From IMG/VR virus record IMGVR_UViG_3300042361_000498: a stretch of 64,000 nucleotides of DNA. One strand, written 5' to 3'. This stretch comes from a virus. Lineage: Duplodnaviria; Caudoviricetes. Both the position numbers and the translations under genes were made by a program. Shown here in pieces: positions 50,420-61,919 of this stretch. Under the pieces are notes generated by a model, which saw only the letters and a list, made by a program, of their open reading frames with translations, made no database searches and was not told where the DNA came from. How positions within the stretch are numbered: the first letter of the stretch is position 1; every line of letters starts with the position of its first letter.

Positions 50420-52024
50420 TTGAAAAAGTTAAAAGTTTTATTAAGTGTATTATTCATATTCTGTCTAGCTTCCAAAGCTAACGGACAAACAACATTTACA
50501 CAAACATTTATAGATAAGTGTACTGGAGAAGTAAAACTCGCCACTACTACTTATGTCAACGGAAGAGCATTTGTATCTTTCTATGACCAAATGAGAGTAT
50601 TTACACCGGATGAAGTTACAAGTGGTGTAATGCAAATGTGGTTACAATCCGTATATGTTGCATATTCAACGCAAGGGTGTGCTACAAACCAGGTAGTACA
50701 ACAAACTATACAACAAACAGTAAACCAAGCAGTTCAGCAGGCAGCAGCTCAAGCGGCTCAACAAGCAGCTTCGGCAGCAGCAACACAGGCTGCATCTCAA
50801 GCAGCTTCGGCAGCAGCTTCGCAAGCAGCCTCATCAGCAGCAGCTTCAGCAGCACAATCAGCCGCAAGTTCAGCTGCATCATCTGCCGCTTCTTCTGCAG
50901 CAAGTTCAGCTGCAAGTTCAGCTGCATCATCTGCCGCTTCTTCTGCGGCTAGTGGAGCGGCTTCATCGGCAGCTGGTTCTGCCGTTAGTGGAGCAGCAGC
51001 TTCGGCAGCTGGTGCCGCAGTACCACCACCCCCACCAACCCCATCCGCACCTGCTCCTTCTGCTTCGGCTCCGTCTGGTGGAGGTTCAACCACACCGGCA
51101 TCAAATAGTTCTTCTGGTGGAGGAAGTGGCGGTAGTAGTTCATCACCAAAAGCAGAAGCAAAAGCAGAAGCTAAAGCTGAAGCAAAAGCAGAAGCTAAAT
51201 CCGAAAGTAAGAGTGAATCTAAATCAGAATCAAAATCCGAAAGTAAGAGTGAGGAAAAGAAAGAAGAAACTAAATCGGAATCTAAAAAAGAAGAGAAGAA
51301 AGAAGAATCTAAAAAGGAGGAAAAGAAAGAGGAGAAAAAAGAAGAAAAGAAAAAAGAAAAAATAGCACCAATAAATCCATTATTATTAGCATCGGATTTA
51401 AGTGTAGTAGAATCATCTCCATCTAAATTTGATGCTATCTTAACAACCGGTGTATCTCGTTCATCAATGGCTGGGGATGAAAGTTATTCAGCAACATCTA
51501 TGATATGGAGTAACTTAAAACAATTTGCAGTAAGTGGTGGTTATACTAAAATGAACTTTAAAGATGGCTCATTGAATTCTATGAACTCATACTCCGTAAC
51601 TGGAGCATATCTAAATAGAACCTATATGAGTTTGGTTGGATTGACCGTAATTATACCAAACCCAAATATTGGTGTATATGGATATAATGTTGGTTTAGTT
51701 AATTTATTCTCACCAAAAGCAGATGGTGGATATGGATATAGTGTAAGTAATTCTGGTGTTGTATTTTGGACTAAACCATATCAAACTACAAAAAAACTAA
51801 CTCTTTCACCACAAATATTTACAATGTTACCTGGTGGTAGTTGGGATACAACTAACGGAGAATTCACTTATAGTTCTGATGTTGGGTTTTTATTGGGTAC
51901 TTCAATTGATTACAAAATCAGTAAACGTTTTGGATTTAGTTTTAATTACAAAATCAATACGTCTACTGCTGCAGGGGCTCCGATATTAAGTAACTTTTTA
52001 ATTGGTTCTAGATTGATGCTTTAA
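50420..52024 (+). CDS. Exported protein: Cys-pair N-domain, Ala/Ser/Gln stalk, Pro and K/E linkers, C-terminal beta-barrel
   Basis: Signal peptide; SSAA, KAEA, KSES, KKEE repeats; barrel homologous to 39334. Confidence 0.75.
   Translation: MKKLKVLLSVLFIFCLASKANGQTTFTQTFIDKCTGEVKLATTTYVNGRAFVSFYDQMRVFTPDEVTSGVMQMWLQSVYVAYSTQGCATNQVVQQTIQQTVNQAVQQAAAQAAQQAASAAATQAASQAASAAASQAASSAAASAAQSAASSAASSAASSAASSAASSAASSAASSAASGAASSAAGSAVSGAAASAAGAAVPPPPPTPSAPAPSASAPSGGGSTTPASNSSSGGGSGGSSSSPKAEAKAEAKAEAKAEAKSESKSESKSESKSESKSEEKKEETKSESKKEEKKEESKKEEKKEEKKEEKKKEKIAPINPLLLASDLSVVESSPSKFDAILTTGVSRSSMAGDESYSATSMIWSNLKQFAVSGGYTKMNFKDGSLNSMNSYSVTGAYLNRTYMSLVGLTVIIPNPNIGVYGYNVGLVNLFSPKADGGYGYSVSNSGVVFWTKPYQTTKKLTLSPQIFTMLPGGSWDTTNGEFTYSSDVGFLLGTSIDYKISKRFGFSFNYKINTSTAAGAPILSNFLIGSRLML
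50735..51360 (+). repeat. Low-complexity in-frame repeats (QAA/SSAA, KAEA, KSES, KKEE)
   Basis: Read directly. Confidence 0.85.
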
Positions 52025-54223: not shown

Positions 54224-55462
54224 ATGACATTACAAAATTCAAGTGTTGTATCTACGCAAATAACACAAACAGGACCGATAACTACTAGCGTAAGTAAGGG
54301 AATGGGATTTGTATATAGTGTTATATTAGATGAAACACATCCTGCTATAAAAGATAGTAATGGTAATAGAAAAATATCATATATAGGAGCAATTGAATAT
54401 AGGTTTGCAAATAATGTAGCATCTGATGATGCAAATTTACCAATTGCATTTCCATTTGATAAAAATTTTAAAAATTTACCGGTTGTAAACGAAAGTGTTG
54501 AAATTTATCAAAATGGTAGTGTGTCTATGTATAGGCGTGTTGGACAAGATATAACACCAAATATAAATTCAGACCAAAAAGCTATAACAAAACATTATGG
54601 TGAAAAAACAAAATTAGATAATAAAGGTAATGATTATAATAAAGTACAAACCACTGGTATAGTTAAAACAAATGTAAACGAATCATTGCAATTAGATGGG
54701 TTTGGAAAATATTTTAAAACAGAAAGGGGAATACACAGATTAAAATTATACGAAGGTGATAGTTTGGTTGAAACACGGTTTGGACAATCTATAAGATTCT
54801 CTGGATACAATAATCCTAAAAATGTATTCTCACCAACTGTAATAATTAGAAATGGCGAAAGTCAGATAACAAGAAAAAAACCAATAACAGAATCTATATT
54901 AGAAGATATAAATAAAGATGGCAGTATCATTGCTATGACATCTGACCAATATGAGTTATCGTTTTTACCTGGTACTGTTAGTGAAACTGGTACAACTGAT
55001 TTTCAAACAGCTCCAACATCATTTCAACAATATCCATCTAAATTAATTGGTGACCAAATTCTAATCAATTCTGGAAGATTGATATTTTCTGCAAAAAGTG
55101 CGGAAATGATATTTTATTCTAAAAAGAATTATGGGTTTATATCAGATGGTGCCATGTCAATTGATAATGCATTGGGGATTGATGTTAGTGTGGGTGGTGA
55201 TATAAATGTATTAACTAACGATAGGAGTGTTCATTTATATACAGGAAATGGTTCTATTATATTGGGTAGTCAGGGATTAGAACCATTGGTAAAAGGACAA
55301 ACTTTAGTAGATATATTGGGTGAGTTAATAGATACAATTGTAGCACAACAATATCTAACTCCATCCGGCCCAACTAAAATAGGTCCTGAAAATGTACCAA
55401 AATTTGCATCTATAAAGTCAAAACTTAATTCAATGTTAAGTAAATTAAATCAAACTGCTTAA
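54224..55462 (+). CDS. Baseplate hub/spike (gp5-like) protein
   Basis: RFGQSIRF, QILINSGRLIFSAK, EPLVKG..L..IL..L; position before baseplate genes. Confidence 0.55.
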   Translation: MTLQNSSVVSTQITQTGPITTSVSKGMGFVYSVILDETHPAIKDSNGNRKISYIGAIEYRFANNVASDDANLPIAFPFDKNFKNLPVVNESVEIYQNGSVSMYRRVGQDITPNINSDQKAITKHYGEKTKLDNKGNDYNKVQTTGIVKTNVNESLQLDGFGKYFKTERGIHRLKLYEGDSLVETRFGQSIRFSGYNNPKNVFSPTVIIRNGESQITRKKPITESILEDINKDGSIIAMTSDQYELSFLPGTVSETGTTDFQTAPTSFQQYPSKLIGDQILINSGRLIFSAKSAEMIFYSKKNYGFISDGAMSIDNALGIDVSVGGDINVLTNDRSVHLYTGNGSIILGSQGLEPLVKGQTLVDILGELIDTIVAQQYLTPSGPTKIGPENVPKFASIKSKLNSMLSKLNQTA

Positions 55463-55466
55463 ATAT

Positions 55467-56042
55467 ATGGCAACGATAATTCAACCACCATTACCAAAAT
55501 TTGATACTACATCACTAAATGCGGATTTGGCTAATAAAATAAAAGCGCCTGAATTGCAAGAAATACCTGATGGTAGTGGTAATTTACGTTCTATGATAAA
55601 AGACCAATCTATGCAATTGGGTACTAATATAGAAGGTACTTTAGACCAATTTGGAGAAAACATAGAAGCCGAAGCAGAGAGAAAAGCTGCAGAATTAGAA
55701 GCTGCTGCAAAACAAATAGAAGCGGCAGCATTAGCAGCTGCTAAAATGATTGAAGAAGAATTAAAAAGAAAAAAAGAAGAAGCAAAGAAAGCAATTGAAG
55801 ATGCAAAAAAAGAAGCAAAGGAGGCATTTCAAAAAGCACTAACCGCAAAAGAACAGGCGGAAGATATGATAGCAAAATTACGTGGATTTAAAATACCCAG
55901 ATTAAAAAAATTAAAACCCATACCAACAAAAGATTTACCAGCACCTCCTCAATATGCTAAATATATGGATGCTGATGCAAAACGGGAATACGCCGAAAAT
56001 GCTAAAAGTTCGGCAACAAAAGGAGAACCACCAATAGTATAA
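55467..56042 (+). CDS. Coiled-coil structural protein
   Basis: Ala/Glu/Lys heptads. Confidence 0.55.
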   Translation: MATIIQPPLPKFDTTSLNADLANKIKAPELQEIPDGSGNLRSMIKDQSMQLGTNIEGTLDQFGENIEAEAERKAAELEAAAKQIEAAALAAAKMIEEELKRKKEEAKKAIEDAKKEAKEAFQKALTAKEQAEDMIAKLRGFKIPRLKKLKPIPTKDLPAPPQYAKYMDADAKREYAENAKSSATKGEPPIV

Positions 56043-56045
56043 ATT

Positions 56046-57110
56046 ATGTCTTGGGAAATATTTAAACAAAATATTGTAAGAATTTCAAATAGACCAGGTA
56101 GTATACCTGATATAGATACTGTGGCTAGGGCTTATGCAGTTGAATACGATGCTGCAATTAAAAGAGGATTTGATACTTTAAATAATATAGCAATTCAGCA
56201 AGGTGATGTTGCAACAATGGAAAGATTGTTTAAAATTGCTTTACAAAAAGGATTATCATCAACAGGTCCATATGATTTAGTTGGTGAAATGGGAAAGGGT
56301 GTAATTGCGTATTGGAGTGCACCAGGTGGGCCTGCTAGTATAGCTGATAATGCGGATGGTATTGATGCGGTGGAGGCTGAAGCAATTCAAACCGATATTA
56401 ATAGAGAATACCCAAAAACTCAATTAGAGTATGAAAGACAGTTTCCATCAAAAGAAGCCGCAATGGCAAATAATAGTAATGTTTCACCAAAAGAAGCATT
56501 AGATTCTGTAAACGATTTTAATAATGAAAAATCCCAAAGTAATGCTGATACTAAATTAGTTGGAAGGGGTGATACTGCATTATTTAATAAATGTGGAAAT
56601 GGAATATGGCCTGCATTGGGAACTGCTCCAAATTTTGAAATAAGAAGTATAGAAAATGCTGACTCAGATTGTCCTAGAAAATGGTACAAAACAAATCAAG
56701 AATATCTAACAAAAAATTGTACTCAAATAATGTTTCCAACTGCCAAAGGTAGTTCTAAAATATTAGTTCATAAAAATTTGGCAGCAATTATAAAACCCGC
56801 ATTAGAAGAAATAAAAGCAAAAGGATTGCAAAGATATATTGAAAATTGCGGAGGTGGGTTGGCTATTAGAAATGTAACTTGTGGTACTAGATTATCAAAT
56901 CATAGTTGGGGAACTGCGATTGATATGAATACGGGAATATACCCATATGGTGTAAAATTTAAATCAGATGGAATTTATAGTGGTAAGAAAAAACTTAGAG
57001 AACTTAATGAATTTGATAAAGGATTCCAACAAGTAGCAGCAATATTTAAATCAAAAGGAATGACATGGTTAAGTAATAATGACCCAATGCACGTTTCTAT
57101 ATATGAATAA
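56046..57110 (+). CDS. Virion protein with C-terminal M15-family peptidase
   Basis: R......RLSNHSWGTAIDMN...DPMHVS. Confidence 0.85.
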   Translation: MSWEIFKQNIVRISNRPGSIPDIDTVARAYAVEYDAAIKRGFDTLNNIAIQQGDVATMERLFKIALQKGLSSTGPYDLVGEMGKGVIAYWSAPGGPASIADNADGIDAVEAEAIQTDINREYPKTQLEYERQFPSKEAAMANNSNVSPKEALDSVNDFNNEKSQSNADTKLVGRGDTALFNKCGNGIWPALGTAPNFEIRSIENADSDCPRKWYKTNQEYLTKNCTQIMFPTAKGSSKILVHKNLAAIIKPALEEIKAKGLQRYIENCGGGLAIRNVTCGTRLSNHSWGTAIDMNTGIYPYGVKFKSDGIYSGKKKLRELNEFDKGFQQVAAIFKSKGMTWLSNNDPMHVSIYE

Positions 57111-57120
57111 TTATTAAGAT

Positions 57121-57957
57121 ATGGGAGCTATAATGAGAAACTTTCCAATACCACTTATACCAGCACCAGGCTCAACTGCCAATGTTGCTGTAATAAATAA
57201 TGTGGTTTTAAGTCCGGGAGTTTGGGGACCACCACAACCATCGGTAGGAGCAAGACAGGGAGATACTTTATCCGAAGAGGAAAAAGCTGGTGCACAAGAA
57301 GATTTGGATGTTGCAAAAAAAGATTTGCAAGAATTTCAAAATGACCCAACACCCGAAGGACAGGCTAAAGCACAAACTGCAAGAGAACAAATAGCATATC
57401 AATCGGAAAGATTGGGAAGTGGTGAGAATGCATCTTCATCGGATGTATCAAATGAACCAAAGCAAGAGATTATAGCAGATTTGCCACCTGATATGGAAAT
57501 AGGATTAAAAATAGTTCAATATGCTTTAAGAGATTTAGGAGTAACTGAAAATCCACTACCACCGGGAAAACCTGAAAATTCCGGTCCAAGAGTTTTACAA
57601 ATGTTAAAAGGTGTTGGATTTAATACACCCGCATATTGGTGTGCTGCTGCGGTATCTGCTTGGTATAAGAGTGCTGGTGCAAAATCACCCAATAGTGCAT
57701 CATGTGATGTTTGGATGAGTTGGGCAAAACGAAATGGATTGTTTAGTAGCAAACCTGCAATTGGAGCAGCTATTTTATATGGTAGTTCGGCAGATGCACA
57801 TCACATAGGAATTGTTGAGGCAATAAGTGGGGATAGAGTAACTACAATAGAAGGTAATACTTCTGGTGGTGGTTTTAGTAGAAACGGAGTAGGTGTATTC
57901 CGTAAATCAGCAAGAATTGCAAAAGCAGTTGGATTTGTATTACCAATAAAAAAATAA
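57121..57957 (+). CDS. Virion protein with C-terminal CHAP amidase
   Basis: YWCAAAVS, HHIGIVE, TIEGNT. Confidence 0.88.
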   Translation: MGAIMRNFPIPLIPAPGSTANVAVINNVVLSPGVWGPPQPSVGARQGDTLSEEEKAGAQEDLDVAKKDLQEFQNDPTPEGQAKAQTAREQIAYQSERLGSGENASSSDVSNEPKQEIIADLPPDMEIGLKIVQYALRDLGVTENPLPPGKPENSGPRVLQMLKGVGFNTPAYWCAAAVSAWYKSAGAKSPNSASCDVWMSWAKRNGLFSSKPAIGAAILYGSSADAHHIGIVEAISGDRVTTIEGNTSGGGFSRNGVGVFRKSARIAKAVGFVLPIKK

Positions 57958-57961
57958 TAAA

Positions 57962-58894
57962 ATGTCAGCAGTTAGACCTACGGATAATACTGGAGTAATA
58001 GTTGATGAGTTCATTCGTTATGCAACTCAACATTTAACTACTGTAACCGGCGTTATATCAACAACATCTTTATATCCACCTTTGGGTACACCCGGACCGG
58101 GTATTATAAATTGGACAGGTTATACAGTTCCCCCAGCAGCACCATCAATACCTATTGGTCAAGTTGATACATCTGCAATAGAAATGACACCTGAACAAGA
58201 AGCAATAGCTGAAAGAGCATCACAAAGGGGAGCTGATTTAAATTCTGCAACCGCAGCTGCACTATCTGGTGTGGAATATACAGGCGGTTCTTCTGGTGGA
58301 GGTGGTGGAGGTGGTAGTGATTCTGGCGGTGTAGTATCTTTATCCGCAGATAAATTGCCGGTTGATGGTGTTGAAAAAATACCTAATTACAAAACAAGTG
58401 TAAAAGTTCCACCCGAAATAGTTGTTGCTATGAGAAAATATGGAGTGGGTAGAAGTCCTTTGGAAAGAGCACACTTTTTAGCACAATGTGCTCACGAAAG
58501 TGGAGGATTTATTTATAGAGAAGAATTGGCAAGTGGAGCTGCATATGAAGGTAGACGTGATTTGGGTAATACACAACCTGGCGATGGTGTACGATATAAA
58601 GGTAGGGGATATATTCAATTAACGGGTAGAGCAAACTATACAAAATTTGGACCTGTTGCTGGTGGTGATTTTGTAGGAAATCCAAGAGTAGTTGCACAGC
58701 AATATTATGCTGATACCGCTTGTTTATTTTGGAAATCAAATAGTTTAGGTCCAAAATGTGTTAATTCATCGATTGATACTATTAAAGTTGTAACTAAAAG
58801 AATCAATGGTGGTTATAATGGATTGAACGATAGAGTAAGTAGATTTGCAGTTTATTGGAGAGAATTACAAAGAGACCCGACACTTTGGGCATAA
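57962..58894 (+). CDS. Virion protein with C-terminal GH19 lysozyme/chitinase domain
   Basis: HFLAQCAHESGGF, YKGRGYIQLTGRANY, TKRINGGYNG. Confidence 0.9.
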   Translation: MSAVRPTDNTGVIVDEFIRYATQHLTTVTGVISTTSLYPPLGTPGPGIINWTGYTVPPAAPSIPIGQVDTSAIEMTPEQEAIAERASQRGADLNSATAAALSGVEYTGGSSGGGGGGGSDSGGVVSLSADKLPVDGVEKIPNYKTSVKVPPEIVVAMRKYGVGRSPLERAHFLAQCAHESGGFIYREELASGAAYEGRRDLGNTQPGDGVRYKGRGYIQLTGRANYTKFGPVAGGDFVGNPRVVAQQYYADTACLFWKSNSLGPKCVNSSIDTIKVVTKRINGGYNGLNDRVSRFAVYWRELQRDPTLWA

Positions 58895-58949: not shown

Positions 58950-59456
58950 ATGAATACGGATAAATTATTAAAAGCTATTCAAATTCTTATCAAAGAGGAG
59001 TTAAAACAACAACTCCCTGCTTTGATTAAAGAAGGAGTGAAAGCGGAAATGAAAAAGGTTTTAGCGGAAGGAAATACTAAACCACAACCTAAAAAAGAAA
59101 GTGAAGGATTTTCAATGGCTAAAGCAATATTGGGGAATGATACTATTAAGGAATCGGTTGAAACTAAAGTAGTAGAAACTAAACAATTTAGTAAAAACCC
59201 AATTATTAATCAAATTTTAAATGAAACAAGAGGTGGTATCCCACAAGGTGATGGTGGTTTTAGAACAATGAATTTTGGACAAGGTGATATGGGGTCTGTT
59301 GTAGGTAGAACTGCAGTAGCTGATAAAATGGGATATGGTGATTTAGCTAGAGGACCTCAACCAAGTGGATTAGGTGTTCAAACTGGGGTGCCTGAATTGG
59401 ATAAAGCATTGAACAGAGATTATTCAGAATTAGTAAAACGATTTAATAAAAAATAA
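58950..59456 (+). CDS. Hypothetical structural-region protein
   Basis: After the late motif at 58917. Confidence 0.65.
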   Translation: MNTDKLLKAIQILIKEELKQQLPALIKEGVKAEMKKVLAEGNTKPQPKKESEGFSMAKAILGNDTIKESVETKVVETKQFSKNPIINQILNETRGGIPQGDGGFRTMNFGQGDMGSVVGRTAVADKMGYGDLARGPQPSGLGVQTGVPELDKALNRDYSELVKRFNKK

Positions 59457-59882: not shown

Positions 59883-61919
59883 ATGGCATTAACTACAATA
59901 AATAAGAATTTTAAAAACAAAGGAAAAGATATAAAATATCTAAATAAAGACTTTGCTGCATTTAGAGAAAACTTAATTGAATTTTCTAAAACATATTTTC
60001 CAAAAACATATTCTGATTTTAATGAAACATCACCTGGTATGATGTTTATTGAATTAGCATCGTATGTTGGTGATTCATTATCTTATTATGTAGATGATAC
60101 TTTAAAAGAATCATTAATGCCATACGCTGAAGATATTCAAAGTGTAATTGCATTATCTCAATTTTTGGGATATAAACCAAAAGTAACATCTCCAGCAATA
60201 ACAAATGTATCGGTATATCAATTAATTCCATCAATTGGAAGTGGTGTTAATAACAAACCAGATGAAACATATTTTCTTAGAATAAAAGAAGGTATGCGAT
60301 TACAATCTACTGAAAATGATATTTTATTTAGAACAACAGACGTAGTTGATTTTAATGATGAAAACAATAGAGAGATTACAATTTACGAAAGAGATGTAAA
60401 TACTGGAGAACCTACTTTTTATTTGGTTAAAAAATATGTACAAGCAATATCAGCTATCACATCGGAAAGAACATTTACGTTTGGAGCATATCAACCATTT
60501 CAATCAATAACATTAGATGAAACGAACATTATTCAAATATATGATGTTAGGGATTCGAATGGAAACAAATATTATGAAGTTCCATATTTGGGACAAGAAA
60601 TGGTGTATATTGAACAACCAACAACAGAATCAAATGATGCTGAATTATATCAATTTAAAACAACAGTTCCATATATTCTTAAAACTATAAAAACACCAAG
60701 AAGATTTGTAGCAAAAGTAAATCAAAATAGTACAACTACATTACAATTTGGAGCAGGTGACCCATCCGCATCGGATGAACAATTAATACCAAATCTTAAA
60801 AATGTAGGACTTGGTTTACCAAACTCAATTAGTAGATTGGAAGAATCATTTGACCCAACTAATTTTTTAAAAACAAAAACGTATGGAACATCTCCATCAA
60901 ACACAAGTATTATTGTTAAATATTTTGTAGGTGGTGGTATTAGTTCAAATATAGTTAAAGGTGATTTGACTAGAATAGTTGGAATAGAATATGAAGATGA
61001 TATTGATTCATTTACAAATGCACAAATAGCAACATATAATAGTATTAAAAATTCAGTAGCAGTTGATAACGAAATACCCGCAACAGGTGGTAGAGATGGT
61101 GAAACTATTGAAGAGATTAGACAAAACGCATTGGCAAACTTTGGTGCACAAAATAGAGCAGTAACTGCAAAAGATTATCAAGTTAGAGCATTATCATTAC
61201 CATCAAAATATGGTGGTGTTGCTAAAGCATTTGCAACTGCAGATGGTACATTGGATAATAATTCACCTGCTTCTATATTAGCATCACCAAATCATTTACA
61301 AGAGTTTACGGATTTGGTTATGAGTTTTGTTAATAAGCCTGATTCAGAAGAACCAACTATACAATCCGTTAAGCAAGATATTACAACATATTTAATTGGT
61401 AAAGATTCCAACTTAAAGGAAAAAAATAATCCGTTTGCAATTAACCTCTATTTGTTGGGATATGATTTAAACGGAAATCTTACAAATCTTAATAAAGCAG
61501 TAAAAGAAAATCTTAAAACTTATATGAACGAATACCGAATGTTGACAGATGGTGTTAATATAAGTGATGGGTATATTATAAATATTGGTGTTGAGTTTGA
61601 TATTATCATATATAACAACTACAACAAAAGTGAAGTACTTACTAAATGTATTACTGAATTGAAAGATTATTTTAATATAGATAATTGGACATTCAATCAA
61701 ACAATTAATTTAAGCGAAGTAGAATTACTAATAGCAAACGTTGAAGGTGTATCATCAGTACCAATGATGAAAATAACAAATAAATGTGGTGGAAATTATT
61801 CACCAAATTCATATAACGTAGATGCTGCAACTAAAGATAAAATTGTATATCCATCGTTAGACCCATCTATTTTTGAAATTAAGTTTCCGGATTCAGACAT
61901 TAAAGGACGAGTAAGATAA
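59883..61919 (+). CDS. Baseplate wedge subunit (gp6/baseplate J-like)
   Basis: YLNKDF, DFNETSPGMMFIE, ATGGRDGET.EEIR, QNRAVTAKDY. Confidence 0.85.
   Translation: MALTTINKNFKNKGKDIKYLNKDFAAFRENLIEFSKTYFPKTYSDFNETSPGMMFIELASYVGDSLSYYVDDTLKESLMPYAEDIQSVIALSQFLGYKPKVTSPAITNVSVYQLIPSIGSGVNNKPDETYFLRIKEGMRLQSTENDILFRTTDVVDFNDENNREITIYERDVNTGEPTFYLVKKYVQAISAITSERTFTFGAYQPFQSITLDETNIIQIYDVRDSNGNKYYEVPYLGQEMVYIEQPTTESNDAELYQFKTTVPYILKTIKTPRRFVAKVNQNSTTTLQFGAGDPSASDEQLIPNLKNVGLGLPNSISRLEESFDPTNFLKTKTYGTSPSNTSIIVKYFVGGGISSNIVKGDLTRIVGIEYEDDIDSFTNAQIATYNSIKNSVAVDNEIPATGGRDGETIEEIRQNALANFGAQNRAVTAKDYQVRALSLPSKYGGVAKAFATADGTLDNNSPASILASPNHLQEFTDLVMSFVNKPDSEEPTIQSVKQDITTYLIGKDSNLKEKNNPFAINLYLLGYDLNGNLTNLNKAVKENLKTYMNEYRMLTDGVNISDGYIINIGVEFDIIIYNNYNKSEVLTKCITELKDYFNIDNWTFNQTINLSEVELLIANVEGVSSVPMMKITNKCGGNYSPNSYNVDAATKDKIVYPSLDPSIFEIKFPDSDIKGRVR

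Follow-up and report, generated by a model that had tools for sequence, protein, structure and literature searches.

Three adjacent hydrolase genes

We analysed a stretch of 64,000 nucleotides (the window) from the IMG/VR virus record IMGVR_UViG_3300042361_000498 (Duplodnaviria; Caudoviricetes) and, within it, three consecutive genes, p1, p2 and p3, each of which encodes a predicted peptidoglycan hydrolase behind a non-catalytic N-terminal part. As judged by profile homology, the three N-termini are consecutive pieces of one protein of about 185 amino acids (aa), here called the scaffold: N (about 92 aa), seg2 (about 40 aa) and seg3 (about 57 aa). The window is part of a metagenome-assembled record of 133 kb (G000), about 70% complete and with a G+C content of about 32%. 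The genes lie head-to-tail on the + strand, with gaps of 10 and 4 nucleotides and in three different frames:

56046..57110, + strand: p1, open reading frame (ORF) of 354 aa; scaffold piece N, linker, Peptidase_M15_4
57121..57957, + strand: p2, ORF of 278 aa; scaffold piece seg2, linker, CHAP
57962..58894, + strand: p3, ORF of 310 aa; scaffold piece seg3, linker, GH19

The catalytic domain is C-terminal in each protein, and matches above the Pfam cut-offs identify all three as peptidoglycan hydrolases: p1 aa 280-351 match PF13539 Peptidase_M15_4 (33 bits; cut-off 25), p2 aa 171-246 match PF05257 CHAP (30.6 bits; cut-off 26) and p3 aa 180-266 match PF00182 GH19 (31.5 bits; cut-off 25.5). In addition, PHROG 9589 (endolysin) matches p2 at 4e-21 and PHROG 181 matches p3 aa 151-304 at 1.8e-40. 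The motifs expected of active enzymes are present in the translations, namely SNHSWGTAID (of the SxHxxGxAxD type) and DPMH in p1, YWCAAAV and AHHIGIV in p2, and AHESGGF and REE in p3. Going by their families, the three enzymes would be expected to cut three different bond types. We rejected the idea of a polyprotein made by read-through or frameshifting, since the ORFs lie in three frames, end on TAA stops and each have their own ATG.

The N-termini tile a single scaffold

A profile of 187 positions (A5) was built solely from 27 bare scaffold proteins of 182-198 aa, none of them from the window. It matches three stretches of the module:

56046..56321, + strand: scaffold piece N; p1 aa 1-92 on A5 positions 1-93, 93 bits
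57124..57243, + strand: scaffold piece seg2, proline-rich and extended; p2 aa 2-41 on A5 positions 93-132, 38.6 bits
57971..58132, + strand: scaffold piece seg3; p3 aa 4-57 on A5 positions 132-187, 64.9 bits

The tiling is collinear and complete, has neither gap nor overlap, and spans three genes rather than one. Because a profile made from bare scaffolds tiles p1-p3 in this way, the continuous reading of the joined segments reflects homology and not chance. Seg3 consists of a helix followed by a conserved end, SLYPPxGTPGPGIxxWTGYTVP, and it is exactly there that the bare scaffolds stop.

Individual relatives give the same picture. More than 400 metagenome proteins begin with a segment 65-76% identical to residues 1-91 of p1; their C-termini are M15_4, CHAP, VanY, M15_3, GH19 or GH24 domains. 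In 117 of the 120 listed N-bearing proteins, residues 2-60 of p2 align at positions 92-150, right behind the p1 piece. One protein of 364 aa (P0008) corresponds to p1 1-91 joined to p2 2-278, and another of 445 aa (P0068, known as a protein sequence only) corresponds to p1 1-91, p2 2-35 and p3 1-309 in a row, p3 being 66% identical to its residues 132-444. All three pieces also occur in stand-alone proteins of 182-186 aa (P0157-P0161), which end in ...WTGYTV(P).

A profile search of 1.84 billion cluster representatives returned 316 members. Of the best 150 of the 316, only two have a match that does not begin at residue 1 or 2, and 78 of these 150 are fused, the bare proteins included. The architectures among the best 150 representatives were as follows:

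Complete scaffold with an enzyme: 39
Bare scaffold: 27
Complete scaffold with a short tail: 12
N and seg2 with a C-terminal tail: 51 (tail longer than 15 residues in 49)
N with a long tail, lacking seg2: 4

These results bear directly on the original prediction, made from the letters and ORFs of the window. Its ORFs, coordinates and quoted residues agree with the translations, and the M15, CHAP and GH19 domains that it placed at the C-termini all exceed the Pfam cut-offs. It had further claimed that the joined N-terminal segments read on from one to the next, which the three A5 scores show to be real homology, and had proposed to look for one contiguous homologue holding all three segments; many such homologues exist, both bare (P0157-P0161) and fused (P0068, L083-87, L167-173).

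A separate idea, that seg3 is a paralogue of the second half of N, was rejected. A first hhalign comparison (probability 71%) and two MAFFT alignments suggested a likeness, which proved artefactual, the seg3 profile having been contaminated by the N-termini of P0157-P0161; a clean profile gave 0.5%, the same as the reversed control.

We found no relative of the scaffold family in Pfam or PHROG, no match in 50,697 cultured-phage records and no meaningful match in the PDB by sequence profile or Foldseek. A wide VIA-align search with the scaffold model likewise gave nothing meaningful (best Z 5.9, helical hairpins). A search of the ESM Atlas returned only phage 'hypothetical protein' clusters, and BFVD only one further uncharacterised homologue of 182 aa.

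Relatives carry from zero to three enzymes

In related loci the same scaffold is found whole or cut, with or without enzymes (the locus counts depend on the queries and are not frequencies):

Bare 186-aa scaffold: L176 and L177, whose gp6 is 73% identical to that of the window
Scaffold plus a tail of about 90 aa, one gene: L160-166
Scaffold-GH19 fusion, one gene: L083-87
Scaffold-CHAP fusion, one gene: L167-173
Two genes, N+seg2-enzyme followed by seg3-enzyme: 91 loci, the commonest form among those fetched
Three genes: the window, L054 (= L082), L035 and L056

Apart from loci truncated by a contig end, each one contains the complete set of three scaffold pieces. Cuts occur only at two fixed boundaries, the pieces keep a constant order, and each fragment carries its enzyme at the C-terminus behind a variable acidic linker. 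In the closest relative of the window (L054), N is a 105-aa ORF (L054:4925-5239) that keeps only about the first 8 residues of the linker and lacks an enzyme. The M15 cassette seems to have been cleanly deleted here, which shows that N is retained in its own right. Elsewhere the enzyme is replaced by an acidic tail of about 90 aa (L160:2747-3583, L163:3427-4281; proteins P0238, P0259, P0267 and P0235). These tails often have a cysteine-rich end (..GGTKCE, ..CCDDCD, ..RCCDC, ..GCCCD), which may bind a metal or form a small binding module.

We then listed the enzyme families by Pfam domain name and by slot, that is, after N (slot 1), after seg2 (slot 2, counting also the genes that start at seg2), after seg3 (slot 3) or fused to the whole scaffold:

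M15_4: slot 1, 9; slot 2, 43; slot 3, 20; fused, 2
CHAP: slot 1, 0; slot 2, 47; slot 3, 2; fused, 18
GH19: slot 1, 0; slot 2, 1; slot 3, 50; fused, 8
M15_3-like: slot 1, 2; slot 2, 42; slot 3, 0; fused, 1
VanY: slot 1, 0; slot 2, 24; slot 3, 3; fused, 3
GH24: slot 1, 1; slot 2, 3; slot 3, 19; fused, 1
Unnamed family: slot 1, 1; slot 2, 27; slot 3, 7; fused, 1

Enzymes are freely exchanged between slots and between phages. The families are swapped in every slot, as had been supposed when the enzymes were first described as swappable and a survey of the slots was suggested. Slot 1 holds M15_4, M15_3-like or nothing in one of the two split lineages described below, and M15_4, M15_3-like or GH24-like in the other. 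A common cargo family of 36 sequences has no Pfam match (P0010, P0134, L035:3294-4238, L114:4745-5992), P0134 showing no more than faint similarity to CHAP and Amidase_6; the family probably represents a papain-like wall amidase or peptidase not described before.

Origin of the split

In trees of the 412-aa upstream neighbour and of gp6, the three-gene loci fall at two distant places. The window and L054 nest within the two-gene loci of one clade, and L035 and L056 stand beside the two-gene locus L114 in another. An approximately unbiased (AU) test of a group named after inspection of the tree rejects a single clade of three-gene loci (difference in log-likelihood 331, p 2e-30). The N pieces of the two split lineages are only about 40% identical to each other, while L035 and L114 share 77% identity in this piece. 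Thus, the split between N and seg2 arose at least twice.

The pair L035 and L114 reveals how it happened. Gene A of L114 equals residues 2-100 of the first L035 gene joined to residues 6-313 of the middle L035 gene, and at the DNA level L035 differs by an insert of 858 nucleotides that comprises linker, M15 domain, stop and new start. In the L035 lineage, fission occurred by insertion of cargo into an intact gene. For the window lineage, fission of the insertion type follows at the protein level from P0008. Since the two-gene form is common among the fetched relatives, the lineage-specific step of the window is the cut between N and seg2 only.

As for the ancestral state, a midpoint-rooted gp6 tree with weak node supports has one-gene forms in basal or nearly basal positions in every major clade, and a one-gene ancestor is slightly favoured (three changes versus four). 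The methionine that starts seg3 is retained inside the chain in P0068 and in the one-gene locus L084. By its identity P0068 is akin to the two-gene relatives of the window's clade, and we read it as a probable secondary fusion.

Selection and predicted structure

The ratio of nonsynonymous to synonymous substitution rates (dN/dS), computed for the window versus L054, is 0.29 for N (from only 15 changes), 0.13 for seg2 and 0.135 for seg3, compared with 0.14-0.18 for the linkers, 0.07 for CHAP and 0.02 for GH19. Across the family the scaffold pieces are conserved and the linkers cannot be aligned. All three pieces are under purifying selection.

The same values bear on whether the genes are split at all. 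The record is a metagenome assembly, and an assembly or sequencing artefact, or a decaying gene, could make a single gene appear split. However, whole catalytic domains lie between the pieces, in three ORFs and three frames; an independent sample (L054/L082) shows the arrangement too, as do protein clusters of 32 and 68 members; and dN/dS is well below 1 in all parts. An explanation of this kind is, in our judgement, extremely improbable.

We modelled with AlphaFold2 the natural fusion P0068 (alignment A2) and N plus seg2 of locus L060 (alignment A4), with predicted template modelling (pTM) scores of 0.48 and 0.66, respectively. N is predicted to form a four-helix bundle (helices 2-14, 23-40, 55-71 and 78-91), with a predicted local distance difference test score (pLDDT) of 72-86; for seg3 the model shows a helix (pLDDT about 80) and then a strand. 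Confidence is low for seg2 and for the invariant SLYPPxGTPGPG..WTGY end. Conserved and yet modelled with low confidence, these segments may fold on a partner.

The models bring in a second reading, that the three pieces are independent docking peptides which sit on separate baseplate sites, make no mutual contact and are merely tethered in the fusions. This would agree with AlphaFold2 being confident for N and the seg3 helix only, while seg2 and the seg3 end are conserved but of low confidence, and with the repeated tolerance of cuts at both boundaries. The fusions speak against it, however: seg2 and seg3 are joined there by only about 5-10 residues, so the sites would have to be at least adjacent, and the order of the pieces is constant. 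We regard independent docking as unlikely and a common scaffold as the preferred reading.

Genomic slot and neighbouring genes

The module occupies a fixed place. In the window, as in 170-odd relatives from IMG/VR, it always lies between a gene for a 412-aa protein and a run of 168-aa, gp25-like and gp6-like genes, and the gene order around the scaffold is the same in the window, L176, L160-173, L083-87 and the two-gene loci. The neighbours in the window are:

54224..55462, + strand: 412-aa upstream neighbour, conserved; adjoins the scaffold gene in relatives whose contig covers the upstream flank
55467..56042, + strand: 191-aa ORF, coiled-coil-like, separating p1 from the 412-aa gene; outside the conserved core
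58950..59456, + strand: 168-aa downstream neighbour, conserved; syntenic where the downstream flank is covered, except in L035 and L056
59456..59878, + strand: gp25-like baseplate wedge protein (PF04965 1.5e-11; PHROG 261 2e-22)
59883..61919, + strand: gp6/Baseplate_J-like wedge protein (PHROG 6, 219 and 10646 at about 1e-16 to 1e-17; weak PF04865)

The gp25-like and gp6-like genes begin 0.6 and 1 kb downstream of p1-p3 on the same strand, and the three hydrolases are encoded within a tail/baseplate gene module. No terminator-like site was found on the + strand between 55.2 and 60 kb. The ORF at the position of the 191-aa protein is rich in alanine, lysine and glutamate, ranges from 112 to about 450 aa in relatives and is missing in many. 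A 'spike' label for the 412-aa protein was withdrawn, as it has no Pfam, PHROG or PDB sequence match. Further upstream, at 50420-52024, an ORF of 534 aa starts like a signal peptide and contains a long low-complexity stretch rich in alanine, serine, glutamine and proline, KAEA/KSES/KKEE repeats and a barrel-like C-terminal part.

Gene content and neighbourhood also bear on the possibility that p2 and p3, or all three proteins, act as soluble endolysins that lyse the host from within, and that their N-terminal peptides are leftovers of recombination without a present function. The PHROG names of the catalytic domains are 'endolysin', and the 133-kb record, about 70% complete, holds no GH24, Amidase_2 or SLT gene elsewhere; since no other lysin of these three families is present in it, one of the three enzymes might double as the endolysin. 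Leftovers, on the other hand, would hardly show a dN/dS of about 0.13 in seg2 and seg3, nor be retained in every complete locus across deep divergence. In the fetched loci with a separate seg3 gene these two pieces are 45-74% identical to those of the window while the linkers are not conserved, and the scaffold also occurs bare, without any enzyme. Moreover, no holin-like neighbour was seen, and the neighbours are of the baseplate type. We consider a purely endolytic role improbable and return to the docking scaffold.

Discussion

Our main explanation, to which we give a probability of about 0.6, is that p1-p3 are hydrolases carried on three pieces of one baseplate-adjacent docking scaffold. 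The scaffold, encoded near the wedge genes, would serve for structural docking in the baseplate or at the tail tip, with exposed loops at both cut boundaries and an exposed C-terminus. The three fragments would bind as one unit, or next to each other on a shared partner, so that a metallopeptidase, a CHAP amidase/peptidase and a GH19 glycosidase would be presented at a single site and would open the host wall at infection. For such proximity, and for nothing beyond it, the natural fusions are 'Rosetta stone' evidence. A more specific version, which we put forward tentatively and at slightly less than even odds, is that the protein of about 185 aa acts as a split-protein tail-tip docking platform, in which the pieces re-associate non-covalently, two permissive loops and the C-terminus take cassettes, phages tune the number (zero to three) and the kind of the enzymes by gain or loss of cassettes, and fission through inserted cargo has recurred independently.

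Several points weigh against this explanation. Firstly, we infer the virion location of p1-p3 from the gp25-like and Baseplate_J-like genes downstream; the conserved 412-aa and 168-aa neighbours, though they stand among baseplate genes, belong to no family recognisable in Pfam, PHROG or PDB sequences, and no relative of solved structure that could place the scaffold in a baseplate came out of the PDB sequence-profile, Foldseek and VIA-align searches. Secondly, the record has, as said above, no lysin gene of the GH24, Amidase_2 or SLT families outside the module. Thirdly, the choice between one-gene and two-gene ancestry is weakly resolved, depending on a midpoint root and weakly supported nodes. 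Lastly, the AlphaFold model of P0068 shows no confident packing of seg2 or seg3 onto N. The original prediction had envisaged the fission of a baseplate protein into three re-assembling fragments, each loaded with an enzyme: homology and the single-chain relatives bear out the fission into enzyme-loaded fragments, whereas co-folding finds no support in this single-chain model.

Three kinds of known systems invite comparison. The first is T4 gp5, the baseplate hub subunit and tail lysozyme, which combines in a single chain an oligonucleotide/oligosaccharide-binding (OB) fold, a GH24 lysozyme and a β-helix. As in T4, a wall hydrolase is encoded here among baseplate genes and is presumed to be carried at the tail tip for opening the peptidoglycan. 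Unlike gp5, the carrier combines a helical bundle with extended peptides within about 185 aa, bears zero to three enzymes of many families and is split into separate genes. Pfam and PHROG searches detected no gp5 signature in p1-p3, the sole PHROG 1259 match falling on the CHAP part; in place of a gp5-type OB-fold N-domain with a β-helix, N is predicted to be a four-helix bundle. The system does not belong to the gp5 family. The second comprises the lysins of phages of Gram-positive hosts (lactococcal Tal, phi29 gp13 and staphylococcal CHAP+lysozyme tail proteins), in which the domains lie in one polypeptide on a known tail protein. They share with p1-p3 a structural N-terminal part followed by exchangeable C-terminal lytic domains, and some have two different catalytic domains. 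Here, by contrast, three enzymes sit on three fragments of a small scaffold, and multiplicity comes from gene fission instead of domain stacking. The third comprises the 'evolved' VgrG and PAAR proteins of type VI secretion systems and polymorphic toxins, in which a conserved N-terminal loading part is followed by a variable C-terminal effector. The likeness to VgrG/PAAR lies in a conserved N-terminal delivery module, a rapidly swapped C-terminal enzyme cargo and the setting of contractile injection; the differences are that the cargo here consists only of peptidoglycan hydrolases and that the loading module itself is cut, each piece bearing cargo. We found no relation of sequence or fold between VgrG/PAAR and the scaffold.

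Tail-borne wall hydrolases with swappable domains are already known. Tail-associated lysins and virion-associated peptidoglycan hydrolases are a subject of published reviews (PMC6024856, PMC6116005). A large group of myovirus-like, uncultured phages has the scaffold described here in a fixed slot just upstream of the gp25/gp6 wedge genes. We know of no description of a small carrier of this dedicated kind that is found bare, as a fusion, or divided among two or three enzyme-bearing genes. An abundant phage 'hypothetical protein' is thereby given a name. If the fragments do re-assemble, the system would be a natural case of split-protein complementation that multiplies the cargo, and a clear case of gene fission via domain insertion in which two or more lineages were cut at one and the same site; it would also offer a ready plug-in site for the display of lytic enzymes on phage particles.

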